A stretch of DNA of 62,636 nt, filler included. It is 10 parts of 10 records of this genome, joined end to end, with 100 filler letters (N's around TTAATTAATTAA, not from the genome) between each part and the next. Parts side by side here need not be neighbours in the genome. Positions count along the whole stretch, not along the records: positions 50,313 to 57,349 come from SRR31147125_96050; 9 more parts are not named here. One strand, given 5' to 3'. The first letter of the stretch is position 1. Each line of letters begins with the position of its first letter. Shown piece after piece: positions 5,520-58,511 of this stretch. The notes below the pieces were generated by a model. That model ran no database searches. It was given only the letters and a program-made list of their open reading frames with translations, and had not been told where the DNA came from. A program made the position numbers and the translations under genes.

Positions 5520-5619
5520 NNNNNNNNNNNNNNNNNNNNNNNNNNNNNNNNNNNNNNNNNNNNTTAATTAATTAANNNNNNNNNNNNNNNNNNNNNNNNN
5601 NNNNNNNNNNNNNNNNNNN
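5520..5619. other. Artificial contig spacer
   Basis: N44-TTAATTAATTAA-N44. Confidence 0.99.
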
Positions 5620-50312: not shown

Positions 50313-50336
50313 CACACACACACACACACACACACA
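50313..50336. repeat. (CA)12 microsatellite at contig end
   Basis: Direct reading. Confidence 0.95.
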
Positions 50337-51407
50337 GTTACTGCCGTGCGGAGGACACAGCTCCTGATAAGATCACGATTACCCTTACAATAGTTCCCAA
50401 AGGAGTGGACAAACAACTCGCACATCCTTTTCAGACGTTTCTGACGGCATGGGAGGTGGGTAGGGTGGTGGTGTACTGTCCATTGGGGTGACTGGACTTG
50501 TAGGCCACACGAGTGCCTCTCTGTGGTGTTGATCAATGGGACACTCTAGTTCATACATTTCCAGACATTTGCCGCGATTGTAGTGCCGAGAGGTTCGTCG
50601 CCTGCCTAAGGGAAGGTGTTTTTCACATGTTTCTTTGTACCGGAAGAGCAAAGGAAGAGGAAAAGCGTGATTCTCATATCATGATCGAGATTGTAAAGGA
50701 GGCGCGGACCTCTCGACCATCCCGCTCCACACGCAAGAGCAATGGTACACAGAGATCCCTATGATTCACGCTCTTATCTGTGGATACAACCCATTAGAAC
50801 GCCATAAGATTCACTGTAAGATGGACGACAGACTCCATGACGTGAAACTCATAATCTGCCAAGAGTGTGAAACGATGCCCTTGTTGCAGCGTCTCTCGTG
50901 CGCTTCTTTTTCTTCCTTGCTTGCTCTAAACCAAACCATTCACGACACAGATTTGAAGGTCGCCTTTTGGACAAGGACGCCCATACACTACACTCGTACG
51001 GAATTACCTCGGGTACAATGATTCAGATGCGCATTAGGAAGGAGTCCGATGTCAGTGATGATGACTGTACGTGACACGAAATCTTAGTTTGTCTTTGACG
51101 CGTGTATCTCTTCTTGGCAGTGGTGATGCTGAATGGCCTCAGCCATGAGGAAGGGTTCCGAGGTGGGGTGGGGCGGGGTGCTTGGTTGGAGGCTGACAAC
51201 CAACACTTTCGTGCAGGCACGGCTCTCGTAGCAAAAGCAAACGAGGATCTGGATGGAGAGGGAATGTCGGATCATCATGAATCCCGGAAGGTGCGTGGAC
51301 CAACAGGCTAGACACACAAGTCTAACCAGAGCAACAGCACGGTGTGGAACCTGGGGAGCCGACAGCCAAACGGCACTGCCATCACGGCTAATGAAGGCTC
51401 CTTTTAT

Positions 51408-54400
51408 TCATTTCATGACACTCTCCGAATTTCCATCCCCCGTAGGGGTGTCAGAACCGCTGGGACTGTCAATCTCCCCGGGAAGAGATGCGTGGTATTG
51501 TGCCACGGCCCGTGGGCTTTCGGTTCCACGTATTTGGAGAGCGGATTTCCTCAACCGTCCTCCCGTCAAGACAGAACGGATGGCTGATGACCAACGCCGG
51601 CGTGCCTGGTGGAGGGATGGCCGTTTGTTCGAGTCGTATCCAGGGGCCAATCAATCCCTCAACGTACCATCTTCCTTGCTTTCCACCCACGGAAGGCGGC
51701 GATAATACGATCCGCCGCTTCGGCTTTCAGTAACCTTCGAAGGCGTCTTTCACGCTCCAGCCGTTCCGAGAAGGTCAATGAGTCCAAACCCATCCGAAAG
51801 ACTCCCAGTGTGAGCAGTACAACACGGAAGGGTACCATTCCATTCTTATTGGCTTGGGACCGGCATTCGCGACACACTAGCCCAACAAAGTTAACCCTCT
51901 GAAGAGGAGATCACGGTGCCAACGAACCGGCGCGGAACCACAGCTTCCTCATGGGTTTTTCTGCCAACGGCTCTCCTAGATTCTAGAAGAATCCTCAGAC
52001 ACGGTGGCTGGCGTGCCACCACCACCAACTCACCTCCACAAGTTCCCGCAAGTGAAACAAGGAAATGTGACCCGTTGACTGTGGATCGAATCGTAACCAC
52101 AGTAGCTTGAACCTACACAACATGCACAACAATCAGAACGTCTCATGCTCCATTTCCACATATTCGCACTTTCTCAAATCCCGATCGGAAATCAAAGCTT
52201 CTTCACGCGAAATCACGTATAGGAAGTTCTTGAGGACGGTGGCAATGAAGATGTTCACAAACATGTACGAGCCGATTGTAATGAAGGTGAAAAAGAATAT
52301 CCACGCCCAACTAGAAGAATTGAATCAGAACACGTTCCAGCAAGTACGGGGACCTACCTGGATCCACAATCACCGGCACTACAACGAGGAGATTCAACCT
52401 GTTCGTGAAATGTCAGGTGGAGAAGGGAGGTGGCCGGTTCCTCCATACCGAACAATCGAAATACACACGATACCAATCTTCGCCTTGGGACATGCGGAGC
52501 AGTGTCAGCATTGCTGTCCCAAAGGAACGGAAATTCACACGACGTTCCAATCCACCACCAAATCTACACGGAACGTCTCTGTGAAAAAGAAAAAGAAGAG
52601 GGAGCACGGAGAAGGAGACGCACCTCACATTCCCATAGAATTCAATCCCCAACACGGCGTACATGAAGAAGAAGATAACAAACACGGCTGTAATGTTGAT
52701 GATAGCGGGTAGACTGATGAGGAGTGTGTTGAACAACTACAAGGATGAAATCGTTACAGGCAACAGACGCAGGTGTGTTGATCTGATCCGCACCATTCGC
52801 AAGCCTCGTGCTTTCCGTACCAATCGAAGAACGCGCCCAATGCGAAAGACACGTGCAACTTGTGTTCCGACGCCCGCCTATACACCAACAGAGGTAAGTG
52901 GGTTGGTGAATGGGTGAATGGGTGCACCACATGCAAACCTGCGTAAAAAGGACGATGATGGATCCAAAGACGATGATGGCATCAAACACATTCCATCCCT
53001 GACGGAAGTAGTTGCGGATCCCCATGGCAGTCCACTGGACACAGAGTGAGAAAAGCAGAACAAACAGAACAAACCTTAATCAACATCTCCAGAGTGAAAA
53101 TCGCCACGAAAATAAGGTTCACGACATCTGGTGGTATGTTGAGAACGGAAAAAGATATGAACTCTCTCACAAACGTAAGGTGTCTTGCCACGACTCAGGC
53201 TGGTCGTAATGCTCCGTGGCTATGAAAATTCCATTGACAATGATAAGAAAGACGATGACCCTTTCGAAGTTAGCATGGATGGAATGATATTTGGGGTTCC
53301 GACAGTATTCCGGGGACCTGCGATCTGTGTGTGCGCTTCACATCCGACAAACGTTCAACACATACTTGCAATTGACAACAAGATCGTAACAGCACTGCCG
53401 CCATACAGCTGTGGGCCGGGGAATGAGCCGAAATAGTCGCAAATTGACCATCATCTTACGCATTTCTGGAGCCAGTACGTGAAGGAGACAAACAAACAAA
53501 CAAACAAAGGACAAGTAGCGGATACCGACCCAATGTTCTTGCTTCTCTGTTAACAGGGCCGTTCCTGTGATGATATTGTACTTCTCAATAATGACCCCGA
53601 TAAACTGTTCTGGTGTGAACAGAACGCAAACAAAAAACAAGATGGAATCCGCTCGCCCCTCACAAGATTGAGGATGAAGAAGTTCATGATGATCACATAA
53701 ACGACAAAAAACCATCCATTACTGCTTGAGGCGTCGCGCTCTGGTTGCTCGTGTCGGCCTGTAATATCCATTGTCGAGTACATGATATTCGCCCATCCTG
53801 AAGACGTGTGAATGGGATGAGGAGCAACACCAGGGGTACCTTCAAGCGAAGATACGACAAACAGGGTCTTGAGCGCATGACCAATACTATCAAAGTTCTG
53901 CTGTGCGTCAGAGGACATACATAGCAGACCGAAAAATCGTGGCGTACCCATGGAGGATTGCGCCACGCACGAGGCACAAGTAGTCCGTGAGCATTAACAA
54001 ACGTTCCAACGCACTCAGCTTGAGACGCGACGTCAGTGTCATTGCACGAATAGAGTTTCCCCGAGAACAGGGCAACCCCAATGACTGAGAAGATCCACAT
54101 AAGAAGAAAGTTCAGAAGAACAACATTGCATATCGAAGGCATGCTCTTGAAAAGAGCCTTGAAGAAAGGATGAATGAATGAGACACACCACACGGTACAC
54201 AACATACCCGTGCAATACGTCGCATCCCTGTTCCCAATGAAATAAGGCGAAAAGCACGAAGGGATCGTGTGGCACGGGCAATGCGCCCATAGGTTGTCGT
54301 TCCGCTTGTTCCCTCGAAGATAATGCCTAGAACGAACGGAGTCAGAAGTGCGAACATCCTAAAGGTGGGGGGGACCTCACCAATTCCCATCAGAATAATG

Positions 54401-57318
54401 ACAACGAAATCCAAAAGGTTCCACGAATCACGGAAATAGGAATTGGGAAGAAGAATCCAACCCTTGGCAACAACCTTGGCAATGCAACAAGCATGAGCAT
54501 CAAACAGCATTGCCCTGTTCCAACCTTAATGATCAATTCCAAAAAGAAGACAAGATAGAAGATAACATCCATTATGCGTGTAAAGTCGGAAAAGGTGTCA
54601 TCCTCGCGCGTCTTGGGATTCTCCATGGCAAGAAGAACACAACTGAACAGAATCACCACCATAATGATGGGCTGGAACCAGCGCGAATCCTGCTCCCATG
54701 AATCTCAATACACAAAACAGTACAAACTAGGAACAGAAGAAGAAAACCGCACCACAATCCGAATGCATGTATGTCGTAGCGTGTTCTGAGGTCCCAGAAG
54801 GCAGGCAACGTCTTTGTGTCCCTTGCTTATAAGGGAGAGCCAGTCCGTGGGTGGCTCATCCTTTTGTTGTTTGCCCTTGTCATCACACGGTTCGTCGTCA
54901 TCATCGTCATCATCGTCATCCGCCAGAGGGGGCGGAGGTGGGGACGGAGGCGGTGCTTTATCAGCTGCACCCTCCTGTGCTTCCGTGTTTGATTCCATCT
55001 CGACCATCTCAAGAACGGGAGCAAGGGGAGCAGTGCTACTCGACGCATGCGTTGGTCGTTGACCACCAGCTTGGCCAGGCGCGACTAGGATTTTCGCACT
55101 GTGTGATAACAGAACACATCACTGAATCCTACGCCCCCATCAACACAGGTACGCACGAGGAGCTCCAGACACGCAGAATGTTCAGCATTATTTTCTTTGC
55201 CCGATTCTCTTCGTTGTCAGGAACCGATAGTAGAACATTGAGCGGGAGTTCACGCTTGGCTTCTTGCAACTGTTTCTTGTGAAACTCGATCTCCTGTTGA
55301 CTCGCCTTAGATTCCTGTGCGCGTCTCGGTGTTAGGGGTCTTCGTTCCGTGCAACCAGGGGTGGGATACCTCTGCAAGCTCAAAGTTCTCTAAGATCACA
55401 GCGACGAACAAGTTCAGGAGGATATCTACGGGCCGGGATCCTATCAAACAGAGAATGGCACAAACCCCCACGGAACCTACATCGTGAGATGACAAAGAAT
55501 GTAATGATGATAATGGGGGCACTCCAGCCATCAGGAGAATCCATCGTGCGATACAAAATGCTGTCCCAGTTATCGCCTGTCAAGATCTGGGTGCTTGATT
55601 AGCCCTCTGGGGCGGCGAACGAAATCCAATACAAACCTGGAAAAAGGTCATCATGGAAAGGCGGAAATTCTGAAAGTTCGTGCGTGGCAATGGTTCTCCG
55701 TAGTTGTCTCCGTAGACTTGGACCCCCATAAGCGTATAACACACCAAGAAGAGAAGCATGAAAACAGTAACATTGAAGATGGCCATGGTGCTGGCAAATG
55801 TGGTGTCCTGTGTGTGCAGAAGGCGTTAGAAGCAACTGGGTGCCAACAACATCCACGAACAAGTAATTTTCGCAACCCCGCGGGACTTGTGGAAAGACGG
55901 AGAAGGCGGGTAATCCGAAGGGCACGAAGGGCTTTCAAAAGGGCCTTGCTTACACCGCTGAGCTCAACAATCACCGATATCACAGAAAAACAAACGATGA
56001 TAAAGTCAAACCGATTGTAGCCTGATCAATCACCGCTTGATTAAGGAGTGCACACACACACACACGGACACCCCCAAAGGGATACGTGACGTATTGAAAT
56101 ATCCGGTCAGACCACCATTTCCAACTATACGCACAATGCTCTCCACAAGAAAACCCGCAACGAAGATCATGTCGAGGATGTCTTGGATTCTGTGTGAGGA
56201 GAAAAAGGAACATATGAGGGCTTGACGTACCAATAAGGGTTGCCGCCCGATTTGACAATCCCTCGCGGCGCAATCCAAGAAGAATGGCGTAGGTAACCAA
56301 AAGCACACACACCACATGGTCAAAGGAGGGACTCTGAACAATTTGTTCACAGCGGTGCTTCCATGCTTGTAGGACCTTCCCTGCTGGGGAGGAAGGCTCA
56401 AGGGTCTGGTTGACAGGTGCCGGTTCTTCTGCGGGAGGTCCTGTTGAATGGCGTGCTCTTTCGGATTCTACGATGCGATCGAAATCCGTTGACCGGTCGT
56501 CGTCTGTGAAGCCACTTCGTCCCGTCGAACTCTCCCTCCGTACCTGTTACGAAACATTGATATCTCGAATCACCCACGACCCCACTACGAACCCACCTTG
56601 GAGAAGGTTCCGACCACCACAGCTACGAACAAGTTGATAACCATGAGAGAGACCACAAACACCAGACTGACAAAATAGATGGCGGAGACTGAGTATTCTG
56701 AGTCCATAAGCGAGTACATGAAACGTGACCAGCCCTCGCCAGATGTGCTGACTTGAATGAGCAGAGCAGAGTGTCCAATGTCATCAAATGAACTAAAACC
56801 GTAGTTCGGGTTTGATCCAAAGCGGCACTCTTGATTGCTTGGACACTGCAGTCCCTTGTAGGTCTTGTCGCTACAGAATACTTCAGGAAAGGAAATGAGA
56901 TCGGTTCCCTCCACATAACATCGACGTTGGAGCGATCCAGCGAAATTTGTGTTCCCCACAAGGGCGTACACCACAATGAAAAAGAGAAGAAAGGCCAGGA
57001 CATCAGCAATAAGCTGCATACTCCGATGAAGAGCTTCGAGGATGGCACGCATCCCCGTAAAGAAGCGCATCAGACGGACGGCTCGGATGGCCCGGAAGGC
57101 TCGCAGGGGACTAAGGGTAAAGGAGACAGTAGGGATGATGTTGATCCAAGCGGACAACACAACAATGAAATCAAGACGATTCCATGGATCTCGCAAATAG
57201 GTCTCGGGCCCTGCCACAAATCCCAAAGCAACCACACGAAGTACCATTTCGACAAGGTAGATAGCCGCGAAGATGAGATCCACGATATGATAACCGGAGG
57301 AAGAGCTCCTGGGAGGCC
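51408..57318 (-). CDS. Eukaryotic multi-exon four-domain (4x6TM) cation channel alpha subunit, NALCN/Cch1-like; 5' partial
   Basis: Four S4 and four pore loops in order (SGEGW, TGDNW, SLEGW, QGEDW); WN.LDF motifs; ~20+ short GT-AG introns (e.g. 56544-56596, 56182-56230, 53798-53839); inferred stop 51408-51410 overlapped by AATAAA. Confidence 0.88.
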
Positions 57319-57319
57319 C

Positions 57320-57349
57320 TGTGTATGTGTGTATGTGTATGTGTGTGTG
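57320..57349. repeat. Imperfect (TG)n microsatellite, intronic, at contig end
   Basis: Direct reading; ends in a CAG acceptor on the minus strand. Confidence 0.9.
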
Positions 57350-57866: not shown

Positions 57867-58475
57867 TCAAATCGTTTGCTCAATTAACTCTTTAAGTAAG
57901 CCAAGCATCTTGTCTGAATTATTTGATTTTTCTCTGATAAACAAATCCATTAAAACAAAAAAATAGTCCGCCAAAAAGCATAGTGCAATCAGCCGGCAAT
58001 CCTTTTCTTCTCCGATTTCTCTTCTTGCCTGTGCATTTTTTACGAGATTCGTAATTTCTTGAACATACATCTGATCAAAATGCTTGATCTTTTCTGCCCA
58101 CTCCCCTTCAATAAAAGGAATCTGGCACAAATATTCTCGGGCCAGTCCGGGTCTGGACGTATAAAAACGATAATTGAAACCAGCGACGAAAATAAGCTGG
58201 TCTTTGATTGGAGCGTCAAGTGAAACGGATTGCATTGCCTCATCAAACAATCGTACCAAGTCACCATGACAAGCTGCCGCAAGCAGAGAGGTTTTATTGT
58301 CAAAATGTTTATAAATGGTTCCCAAACCGACTTCTGCGCGGTTGGCAACTGATCTGATAGTCGTTTTTTTAAACCCGTGTTCTTCAAACAAATCCCGAGC
58401 AGTGTCAAGAATCAGTTCATACGTTTCAGCCTTCTGTTTTTGCCGTCTTTTTCCAATTGGATTTGCGAGGTTCAA
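57867..58475 (-). CDS. TetR/AcrR family regulator
   Basis: ILDTARDLFEEHGF.KTTIRSVANRAEVGLGTIYKHF.NK. Confidence 0.93.
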   Translation of the reverse strand: MNLANPIGKRRQKQKAETYELILDTARDLFEEHGFKKTTIRSVANRAEVGLGTIYKHFDNKTSLLAAACHGDLVRLFDEAMQSVSLDAPIKDQLIFVAGFNYRFYTSRPGLAREYLCQIPFIEGEWAEKIKHFDQMYVQEITNLVKNAQARREIGEEKDCRLIALCFLADYFFVLMDLFIREKSNNSDKMLGLLKELIEQTI

Positions 58476-58511
58476 TGGTTCTCCCTTTCTTTATCAAAAC
58501 ACGTTTTCTTT

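Follow-up and report, generated by a model that had tools for sequence, protein, structure and literature searches.

A divergent four-domain cation channel gene of the NALCN/Cch1-related clade on a short eukaryotic contig among prokaryotic-looking sequence

The stretch of DNA analysed here (the window, 62,636 nucleotides (nt)) consists of ten contigs, one of which, 7037 nt long (50313-57349), carries on its minus strand a gene for a cation channel built from four homologous domains of six transmembrane segments each (6TM). We think it likely that the gene is genuine, a nuclear gene of a microbial eukaryote that is spliced and apparently transcribed, and that its product belongs to the clade of NALCN and Cch1 and probably stands beside a channel of Thecamonas trahens. 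NALCN sets the resting excitability of animal neurons, and Cch1 drives Ca2+ stress signalling in fungi. The channel is orthologous to neither of them; it is a new, very divergent member of a NALCN/Cch1-related clade that has already been described.

The exon-intron model was built by hand on the minus strand. It comprises 29 exons running from position 57319 down to a TGA codon at 51408-51410, with the 5' end cut off by the end of the contig. All 28 introns have GT-AG borders, and the frame is open across all 29 exons, giving a coding sequence of 4410 nt (1469 amino acids (aa) and a stop codon) after one read-based correction. Introns are 40-64 nt long (median 53), the median exon length is 115 nt, and the guanine-plus-cytosine (GC) fraction is 0.496 in exons against 0.500 in introns. 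The initial annotation had proposed a spliced minus-strand four-domain gene at 51408-57318; the present model (57319-51408) agrees with it, and all of the motif strings quoted there are found in the translation. The parts of the gene are listed below, with domains I to IV abbreviated as DI to DIV, their transmembrane segments as S1 to S6, and the evidence in brackets; 'joined' refers to introns removed in the public run X2, described after the list.

51408-57319 (-): whole gene, 29 exons, 1469 codons and TGA, 5'-truncated four-domain channel (model, joints, Pfam)
56597-57319 (-): exon 1 (partial), DI S2-S6 with turret and pore (Ion_trans)
57047-57115 (-): DI S4, within exon 1
56735-56737 (-): DI filter Glu codon, within exon 1
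56231-56543 (-): exon 2, short I-II linker and DII S1 (translation)
56086-56181 (-): exon 3, DII S2 (translation)
55861-56021 (-): exon 4, DII S3-S4, LKALRALRITRLLRL (intron 4 joined)
55637-55807 (-): exon 5, DII S5 to pore helix (introns 4 and 5 joined)
55481-55586 (-): exon 6, DII pore LTGDNW with filter Asp codon at 55572-55574, start of S6 (introns 5 and 6 joined)
55370-55425 (-): exon 7, end of DII S6, LLNLFVAVILENFELAE (translation, motif alignment)
55157-55305 (-): exon 8, start of II-III linker, KKQLQEAKRELPL..PD, NALCN-like (motif alignment)
54753-55098 (-): exon 9, Pro/Asp-rich II-III linker to DIII pre-S1 (intron 9 joined)
54525-54689 (-): exon 10, DIII S1-S2 (translation)
54381-54474 (-): exon 11, DIII S2-S3 (translation, Pfam)
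54208-54326 (-): exon 12, DIII S3-S4, GRIARATRSLRAFRL (translation, Pfam)
53948-54157 (-): exon 13, DIII S5 and turret (translation, Pfam)
53840-53900 (-): exon 14, DIII pore helix with filter Glu codon at 53841-53843 (translation)
53664-53797 (-): exon 15, DIII pore to S6 (translation)
53526-53604 (-): exon 16, end of DIII S6 and III-IV linker, ALLT at 53548-53559 (intron 16 joined)
53366-53465 (-): exon 17, III-IV linker (..IPRP..) to DIV pre-S1 (introns 16 and 17 joined)
53175-53317 (-): exon 18, DIV S1 (translation)
53075-53127 (-): exon 19, DIV S2 (intron 19 joined)
52939-53034 (-): exon 20, DIV S3 (introns 19 and 20 joined)
52794-52877 (-): exon 21, DIV S4, QVARVFRIGRVLRLVRKARGLR (introns 20 and 21 joined)
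52624-52736 (-): exon 22, DIV S5 (introns 21 and 22 joined; Pfam)
52449-52563 (-): exon 23, DIV pore SQGEDW with filter Glu codon at 52479-52481 (X2 joint 52563|52624)
52358-52398 (-): exon 24, Cys-rich loop before DIV S6 (introns 23 and 24 joined)
52170-52310 (-): exon 25, DIV S6 and proximal C-terminus (translation, Pfam)
52034-52112 (-): exon 26, EF-hand-like/GPHH-like segment, FKLLWLRFDPQSTGHISL.. (weak GPHH match, below cut-off)
51928-51982 (-): exon 27, remainder of the EF-hand-like segment, NLGEPLAEKP.. (intron 27 joined)
51668-51876 (-): exon 28, pre-IQ-like VPFRVVLLTL..SLTFSERLERE and, at 51671-51706, IQ-like IIAAFRGWKARK (introns 27 and 28 joined; IQ match below threshold)
51408-51605 (-): exon 29, C-terminal tail, TGA at 51408-51410 (intron 28 joined)

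Splicing was checked with Logan contigs of two public runs, X1 and X2, which belong to one study and one sample and of which neither is listed as RNA. The X1 contigs are contiguous across the introns, i.e. unspliced. For X2, 14 minus-strand joints were listed (CT..AC on the plus strand), and 13 of the 14 fall exactly at predicted introns (4, 5, 6, 9, 16, 17, 19, 20, 21, 23, 24, 27 and 28). The remaining joint keeps the donor of intron 22 and has its acceptor 15 nt further on (52563|52624), and the start of exon 23 was therefore moved from 52578 to 52563. A loose end in X2 at 56545 fits the removal of intron 1. Intron-less X2 contigs beside intron-containing X1 contigs from the same sample have the look of spliced transcripts, and the gene is apparently transcribed.

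The Pfam profile Ion_trans matches the 241-aa domain-I exon with an expectation value (E) of 6.6e-49; three further transmembrane pieces exceed the curated threshold of the profile, and a fifth, at 21.6 bits, stays under the 25 required. Such a gene is well outside what chance would produce. The short contig with its microsatellite ends, the mixed assembly and the hand-built model could raise the suspicion of a pseudogene, a chimeric assembly or an artefact of gene modelling, and yet a frame open over 29 exons, four intact domains and the precise removal of 14 introns in X2 all speak against this, as does the comparison of the window with the X1 and X2 contigs, for which no differing letters were reported in either run. 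We regard a pseudogene or such an artefact as highly improbable.

The translation contains the four 6TM domains in a single polypeptide, as seen from the Ion_trans matches in DI-DIV and the alignment to full-length channels. The pore motifs TSGEGW, LTGDNW, SSLEGW and SQGEDW give a selectivity filter E/D/E/E, and the S4 segments of DI-DIV contain 6, 5, 7 and 8 Lys or Arg residues, with Arg/Lys at every third position. The DI turret PEVFCSDKTYKGLQCPSNQEC is followed by FDDIGHS, and DII S6 (LFVAVILENFEL) is followed by KKQLQEAKRELPL. The III-IV linker, GTALLTEKQEHW ... IPRP, opens with ALLT, a hydrophobic triplet and Thr, and the tail reads VPFRVVLLTLGVFRMGLDSLTFSERLER. Further on, the C-terminus has an EF-hand/GPHH-like stretch and the IQ-like IIAAFRGWKARK, which in a search of the PDB aligns with the IQ repeats of a radial-spoke protein. 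Inspected by eye in the translation, the short I-II linker has no stretch resembling the alpha-interaction domain (AID).

Searches with the domain-I exon place the channel far from known sequences. A word-indexed search gave 152 significant proteins from 2703 candidates, and among the best 120 of the 152 protist channels came closest, with identities of 36-37%. When 1.84 billion representatives were scanned exhaustively with HMMER, 10010 matches had E<=1e-3, of which 973 had E<=1e-30; no identity exceeded 35% among the best 150 of the 10010 matches. A metagenome scan found 31 loci, none of them close, with a best full-exon identity of 31-32%. There is no close relative in the libraries searched, domain I being at most 35-37% identical to anything found.

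In a first FastTree analysis the channel fell with a protein of Thecamonas trahens (XP_013757622.1, our P0132; proteins are cited by such P numbers below), a Basidiobolus protein, and channels of Mesostigma and Entosiphon. The Thecamonas protein, used as a query, finds dozens of invertebrate NALCN at 400-428 bits against 421-442 for Cav2, plus a basidiomycete Cch1. The Basidiobolus protein (P0248) gives 526 significant proteins, and the best 120 are fungal Cch1 and some unnamed records.

Phylogenies were computed from several alignments, with rows chosen by hand; most near-duplicate fish Cav3, most NALCN duplicates, sequences below 1150 aa and two gappy rows were dropped. One set of 249 taxa was aligned by profile (1068 columns) and analysed with FastTree. 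For a set of 88 taxa each domain was aligned separately with L-INS-i, and 1033 columns at >=80% occupancy were kept. Maximum-likelihood (ML) trees were obtained for a 66-taxon subset with IQ-TREE, and support is given as the Shimodaira-Hasegawa-like approximate likelihood ratio test (SH-aLRT) followed by aBayes.

In every case the channel lies inside the clade that contains NALCN and Cch1, and outside Cav1/2, Cav3 and Nav. With 249 taxa it belongs to a 24-taxon clade (15 NALCN, 2 Cch1, Thecamonas; support 0.874) inside a 38-taxon clade at 1.0; here it branches as sister to the remaining 23 members of the smaller clade and is not paired with Thecamonas. With 88 taxa the channel and Thecamonas pair at 0.851, a 31-taxon clade with all NALCN and Cch1 of the set (9 and 12) has 0.91, and a 42-taxon clade has 1.0. 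Under LG+F+G4 the pair has 70.9/0.988, and a 32-taxon clade of 6 NALCN, 9 fungal sequences and protists, with no Cav or Nav, has 100/1. The posterior mean site frequency (PMSF) model LG+C20+F+G4 groups the channel, Thecamonas, NALCN and Cch1 in a 17-taxon clade at 80.5/0.962, within which the Thecamonas pair recurs, and supports a 28-taxon clade at 95/1 and the 32-taxon clade again at 100/1. The pairing with Thecamonas is found in three of the four trees (FastTree with 88 taxa, LG+F+G4 and PMSF). The 32-taxon clade also holds euglenozoans, Mesostigma, Platysulcus and a picozoan-like group. Cav3 is a separate clade in all trees.

The position of the channel was then scanned by regrafting it on 33 branches and applying the approximately unbiased (AU) test. 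The results are given as loss of log-likelihood (dlnL), expected likelihood weight (ELW) and AU probability (p-AU):

Sister to Thecamonas: dlnL 0, ELW 0.417, p-AU 0.785
Sister to NALCN+Cch1: dlnL 1.06, ELW 0.229, p-AU 0.579
Sister to Thecamonas+NALCN+Cch1: dlnL 2.0, ELW 0.069, p-AU 0.171
Five other positions within a 27-taxon clade and on its stem: dlnL 6.6-10.2, p-AU 0.07-0.48, not rejected
Stem of the whole 31-taxon clade: dlnL 18.1, p-AU 0.0125
NALCN stem alone or Cch1 stem alone: dlnL 19.65, p-AU 0.0036
All 11 tested branches outside the clade: dlnL at least 109.5, p-AU at most 8e-4

The three top placements are adjacent, and their ELW sums to 0.715. The most likely spot is beside Thecamonas, in the stem group sister to NALCN+Cch1, and the fine placement is soft. 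Among the trees with forced groupings, constraint c1 (NALCN, Cch1 and Thecamonas without the channel; dlnL 76.7) was discarded as the product of a poor -fast search, since dlnL 2.0 is reached when the ML tree is regrafted in a single step; constraints c2 and c3 merely force the channel to be sister to the clade and are no test of its exclusion.

These results bear directly on the idea that the gene encodes an ordinary protist channel of Cav type (Cav1/2 or Cav3) or Nav type. Its filter is acidic, Cav channels are the top solved structures for the domain-I exon, and the turret matches Cav1.1 best. Placements on the Cav1/2 stems (dlnL 131-143), the Nav-like stems (181-189) and the Stygiella group (152) are nevertheless all rejected with p-AU <= 1.1e-5, as is the group of P0010, P0011 and P0096 (dlnL 204, p-AU 3e-4), and a forced channel+Cav1/2 constraint costs dlnL 124 (p-AU 6e-4); the 33 branches omit the stem of Cav3, whose clade serves as the drawing root. 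No AID follows IS6, and the filter is not EEDD, DEKA or DEEA. A Cav or Nav channel is thus barely plausible. The initial annotation had judged the gene closer to NALCN/Cch1 than to Cav/Nav, a judgement that the 100/1 clade and the AU rejections outside it bear out, and the grouping with ordinary Cav-type channels that it had named as a refutation is not what the phylogeny of the spliced protein gave.

Membership of the clade would also follow if the gene were an unremarkable NALCN from a small animal or Cch1 from a fungus, such as a basidiomycete with short introns, and short, dense introns are known in some fungi and small animals. Against this, the NALCN and Cch1 stems are rejected at the p-AU given above, in agreement with the earlier suggestion that this is no routine orthologue. 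Identity over the 1033 trimmed columns is just 27.5-28.8% to NALCN and 26-32% to Cch1, the channel has neither degenerate S4 segments nor the filter Lys of NALCN, and of the 526 significant proteins of the Cch1 search none among the best 120 is close to it. We give this explanation very little credence.

A more serious competitor is a generic protist Ca2+ channel of the wider clade, placed beside P0146 and Platysulcus or beside P0009, the pairing with Thecamonas, NALCN and Cch1 being noise or long-branch attraction. Voltage sensors and an acidic filter are as expected of ordinary protist channels, P0146 is the best full-length phmmer match (794 bits), and its identity to the channel is 38.9% against 39.5% for Thecamonas. 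Several observations weigh against the reading that we prefer or limit it. The AU test leaves the further positions within the 27-taxon clade and on its stem standing (summed ELW about 0.28), among them spots beside P0146+Platysulcus, beside P0009+P0244 and on deeper branches of the 27-taxon clade, and the scan kept the PMSF backbone fixed. LG+F+G4 makes NALCN+Cch1 sister to a 13-taxon protist group that holds the channel, the PMSF support for channel+Thecamonas is just 49.7/0.694, and the branch of the channel is long, about 0.8-1.0. The ML trees come from -fast searches with no bootstraps, and all trees are without CRuM and malawimonad sequences and without apusomonads other than Thecamonas. 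Raw scores also point elsewhere: full-length phmmer gives 514-542 bits for Cav2, 523 for Cav1 and 471 for Cav3 against 406 for Cch1 and 308-334 for NALCN, and of the solved structures in the PDB, Cav2.2 gives the domain-I exon 243 bits and NALCN 102. The protein itself is incomplete, with S1 of DI and the N-terminus lost at the contig end, and its C-terminal matches are below the Pfam thresholds (GPHH, E 0.027; IQ, E 0.07). Finally, the library type of X2 is unrecorded, and an intron-less DNA copy is a formal alternative to transcripts.

Use of the PDB score ranking as a classifier was dropped. P0003, a protist channel that is outside the clade in every tree including it, likewise has a twofold Cav-over-NALCN score, the identical pattern of Cav far above NALCN; the ranking therefore measures the long branch of NALCN and not relationship, and it provides no positive support for NALCN/Cch1 either. 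The site-heterogeneous PMSF model, which is meant to weaken long-branch artefacts, raises the group of channel, Thecamonas, NALCN and Cch1 to its 80.5/0.962, and the bulk of the ELW and three of the four trees favour the same neighbourhood. The Asp of the DII filter is common to the channel and Thecamonas, and the motifs after IIS6 and in the tail are common to the channel, NALCN and Thecamonas. On balance we consider a position among the generic protist channels possible but rather unlikely, and we retain the placement with Thecamonas, NALCN and Cch1.

Four local resemblances to NALCN/Cch1 had been put forward in the initial annotation, and they fared unequally. The stretch after IIS6 (LFVAVILENFEL..K.QL..LPL..PD) and the SL...E.L.RE tail hold up, whereas the DI turret and the ALLT..Q..W linker are shared ancestral features. 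In the PDB the turret alone matches Cav1.1 better than NALCN (34.6 against 22.8 bits). The III-IV linker picks NALCN weakly (E 0.6, through GTALLT..Q..W), and the ALLT..Q..W linker is also found in Monosiga Nav and many protist channels. At E<=10 the PDB gives no NALCN match for the exons of the tail and of the II-III linker, and for the latter (exon 8) no match of any kind; the NALCN resemblance of linker and tail is apparent only against invertebrate NALCN sequences.

The anatomy allows some predictions about function. Arg/Lys at every third position of all four S4 segments suggests voltage-gated opening, and the acidic E/D/E/E ring without Lys suggests Ca2+-permeable or Ca2+-selective conduction; judged by these residues, the channel is probably voltage-gated and Ca2+-permeable, unlike NALCN and Cch1. 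ALLT in the III-IV linker corresponds to the Nav-type inactivation particle motif and may act as one. The EF-hand-like segment and the IQ-like motif would suggest feedback through calmodulin, and the missing AID predicts no binding of Cav-beta. Any Mid1/FAM155- or UNC79/80-type partners are presumptive.

Some relatives met in these searches deserve mention in their own right. P0318 and its cluster members P0508-P0514, which come from metagenomes and are 1903-2538 aa long, belong to the same clade and combine Ion_trans with adenylate-kinase domains (PF00406, PF05191) and EF-hands; some are named 'adenylate kinase', and they may be channel-adenylate kinase fusions. In early-diverging fungi, P0396 (Basidiobolus), P0477 (Mycotypha, with a GPHH Pfam match) and P0481 (Dichotomocladium) are second four-domain channels that branch within the Cch1 clade; Zoopagomycota and Mucoromycota thus have paralogues of Cch1 type. 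P0108, P0102, P0107, P0109, P0116 and P0210 form a tight group in the same wider clade, with a D/E/E/Q filter and EF-hand Pfam matches, and one of their clusters includes a member from a picozoan genome. P0286, a wasp record named 'NALCN', is 3134 aa long with ABC-transporter Pfam domains and is probably a gene-model fusion in the annotation.

The ten contigs of the window appear mutually unrelated. Their GC ranges from 0.355 to 0.555, and they are joined by pairs of 44-N runs flanking a 12-nt linker (N-runs at 5520, 11000, 19305, 24594, 29868, 35384, 40809, 50213 and 57350). In the nine contigs without the channel gene, stop-free frames are long, reaching 1064 aa, and these contigs are prokaryotic in appearance; an open frame at 57867-58490 on the minus strand looks by eye alone like a TetR-type regulator. 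With its spliced introns, the channel gene is indeed a eukaryotic gene among bacterial-looking contigs, as had been proposed. Its own contig has three microsatellites and a second gene:

57320-57349 (strand not applicable): (CA)n-type microsatellite at the contig end, probably in the intron upstream of exon 1
about 56045-56065: CA/TG microsatellite inside intron 3
50313-50345: CA/TG microsatellite at the other contig end
50313-50764 (+): convergent second gene downstream of the channel gene

Evidently the assembly was interrupted at the CA/TG microsatellites, and S1 of DI and the N-terminus are missing for that reason. The second gene has a 48-nt GT..AG intron (about 50456-50503, +) that is absent from the X2 contigs, and when joined its frame is open from the contig start to a stop codon at 50762-50764. 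The pieces of this downstream region that were tried, including the 86-aa second exon, have no significant Pfam match; a Zn_Ribbon_YjdM match is far under the cut-off, and a protein-atlas match of 0.76 is uninformative.

The gene bears on how the weakly voltage-sensitive or voltage-insensitive NALCN and Cch1 arose. Reports of close relatives outside the opisthokonts are recent (Senatore et al. 2025). A second relative, itself very divergent, divides the long branch on which NALCN and Cch1 stand, and its four charged S4 segments and all-acidic filter support a voltage-gated, Ca2+-permeable ancestor. The channel is also a candidate for expression studies once the 5' end is recovered, and the case illustrates that short eukaryotic contigs with tiny introns can go unnoticed in assemblies made in the prokaryote style. 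The advance is an incremental one, since the clade, the breadth of its distribution and the set of ancestral features had all been published before. According to Senatore et al. 2025 (PMC12412391), channels of apusomonads and CRuM are the sister of NALCN/Cch1, channels of Discoba, malawimonads and cryptists are near NALCN/Cch1, and a eukaryote-wide 'clade A' is separate from the Cav1/2, Cav3 and Nav clades. The initial annotation took the clade to be characterised mainly in animals and fungi, a premise that is outdated on that account. Clade A or its core is very probably what our 32-taxon clade represents.

A bolder proposal is that the host is a lineage without a sequenced relative (domain I being <=35-37% identical among about 15 billion proteins) and that it carries, alongside Thecamonas, the closest known relative of NALCN/Cch1 with intact voltage sensors. 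We consider this doubtful. If it were true, the degenerate DII S4 (FQV.R..R) shared by NALCN and Cch1 would record that voltage sensing was lost just once, on the opisthokont stem, and the gene would stand in, as a living representative, for the voltage-gated, Ca2+-permeable channel from which the animal leak and fungal stress channels descend.

Among known channels, that of Thecamonas ('voltage-gated Ion Channel superfamily'; UniRef name 'Calcium-channel protein CCH1') has the highest identity, 39.5% over 1012 shared columns, which still makes it no close relative. It has the same E/D/E/E filter, and its four S4 segments are all charged (6, 4, 8 and 6 Lys/Arg against 6, 5, 7 and 8). Both proteins have LFVAVILENFE at the end of IIS6 and a tail of the form R.(V/G)D..SL..E...RE; the II-III linker of Thecamonas differs and is without the LPL..PD stretch.

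NALCN shares with the channel the sequence after IIS6, LFVAVIL(E/D)N(F/L)EL..K.(K)QL....K.LPL....PD, where KKQLQEAKRELPL..PD of the channel resembles K.LKQLK....K.LPLRLR..EKFPD of NALCN. The core LFVAVIL(E/D)N(F/L)E is found in the channel, Thecamonas and NALCN and not in Cav or Nav; the Basidiobolus Cch1 is nearly the same (LFVAVFLENFE), and the other Cch1 shown diverge more. NALCN and the channel also have in common GTALLT..Q..W in the III-IV linker, the lack of an AID, and a tail V.F..VL..L...SL...E.L.RE, of which SL...E.L.RE is also in Thecamonas and V.F..VL..L is a Cav pre-IQ feature too. They differ in the filter, where 13 of the 15 NALCN sequences of the tree have a Lys (EEKE or EKEE), and in S4, where NALCN has 6-7, 3-4, 4-5 and 3 Lys/Arg, so that DII and DIV are degenerate against 5 and 8 in the channel.

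Cch1 is of the same clade and has four domains, acidic filter residues in DII-DIV and ..ENFE at the end of IIS6. Its S4 segments carry 3, 2-3, 5-8 and 2-4 Lys/Arg, DI, DII and DIV being charge-poor unlike those of the channel, and its DI filter residue is often non-acidic (e.g. N in the Ceraceosorus, Saitoella and Candida sequences shown) where the channel has Glu. NALCN (P0341, P0311, P0297, P0359) and Cch1 (P0387, P0389, P0405, P0453, P0502) have in common a degenerate DII S4, ..(T/A).FQV.R..R.., and a charge-poor DIV S4, whereas the channel and Thecamonas keep the arginines. The degenerate DII S4 is a candidate shared derived character, which would reflect a single loss of DII voltage sensing before the animal-fungus split. 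The S4 segments of the channel are not Arg/Lys-poor, the wording by which Pozdnyakov 2018 characterises NALCN/Cch1.

Cav1 and Cav2 resemble the channel in their four voltage sensors, acidic filter, Cys-rich DI turret and EF-hand-like and IQ-like C-terminus, and differ in having an AID and in not having the hydrophobic-triplet and Thr motif of the linker. From its predicted features the channel probably works like the high-voltage-activated Cav1/Cav2, though it is not a member of that group. Cav3 filters are EEDD, and those of Nav and Nav-like channels are DEKA or DEEA, in contrast to E/D/E/E. The last comparison is with a reconstruction, not a family: the ancestral four-domain channel that Pozdnyakov et al. 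2018 (PMC5824947) infer, with a Cav-like acidic filter, four Arg/Lys-rich S4 segments, a Nav-like inactivation-gate motif (the hydrophobic triplet and Thr of the linker being ancestral in their view), an IQ region and no AID. The channel fits this whole set, but with Asp instead of Glu in DII.

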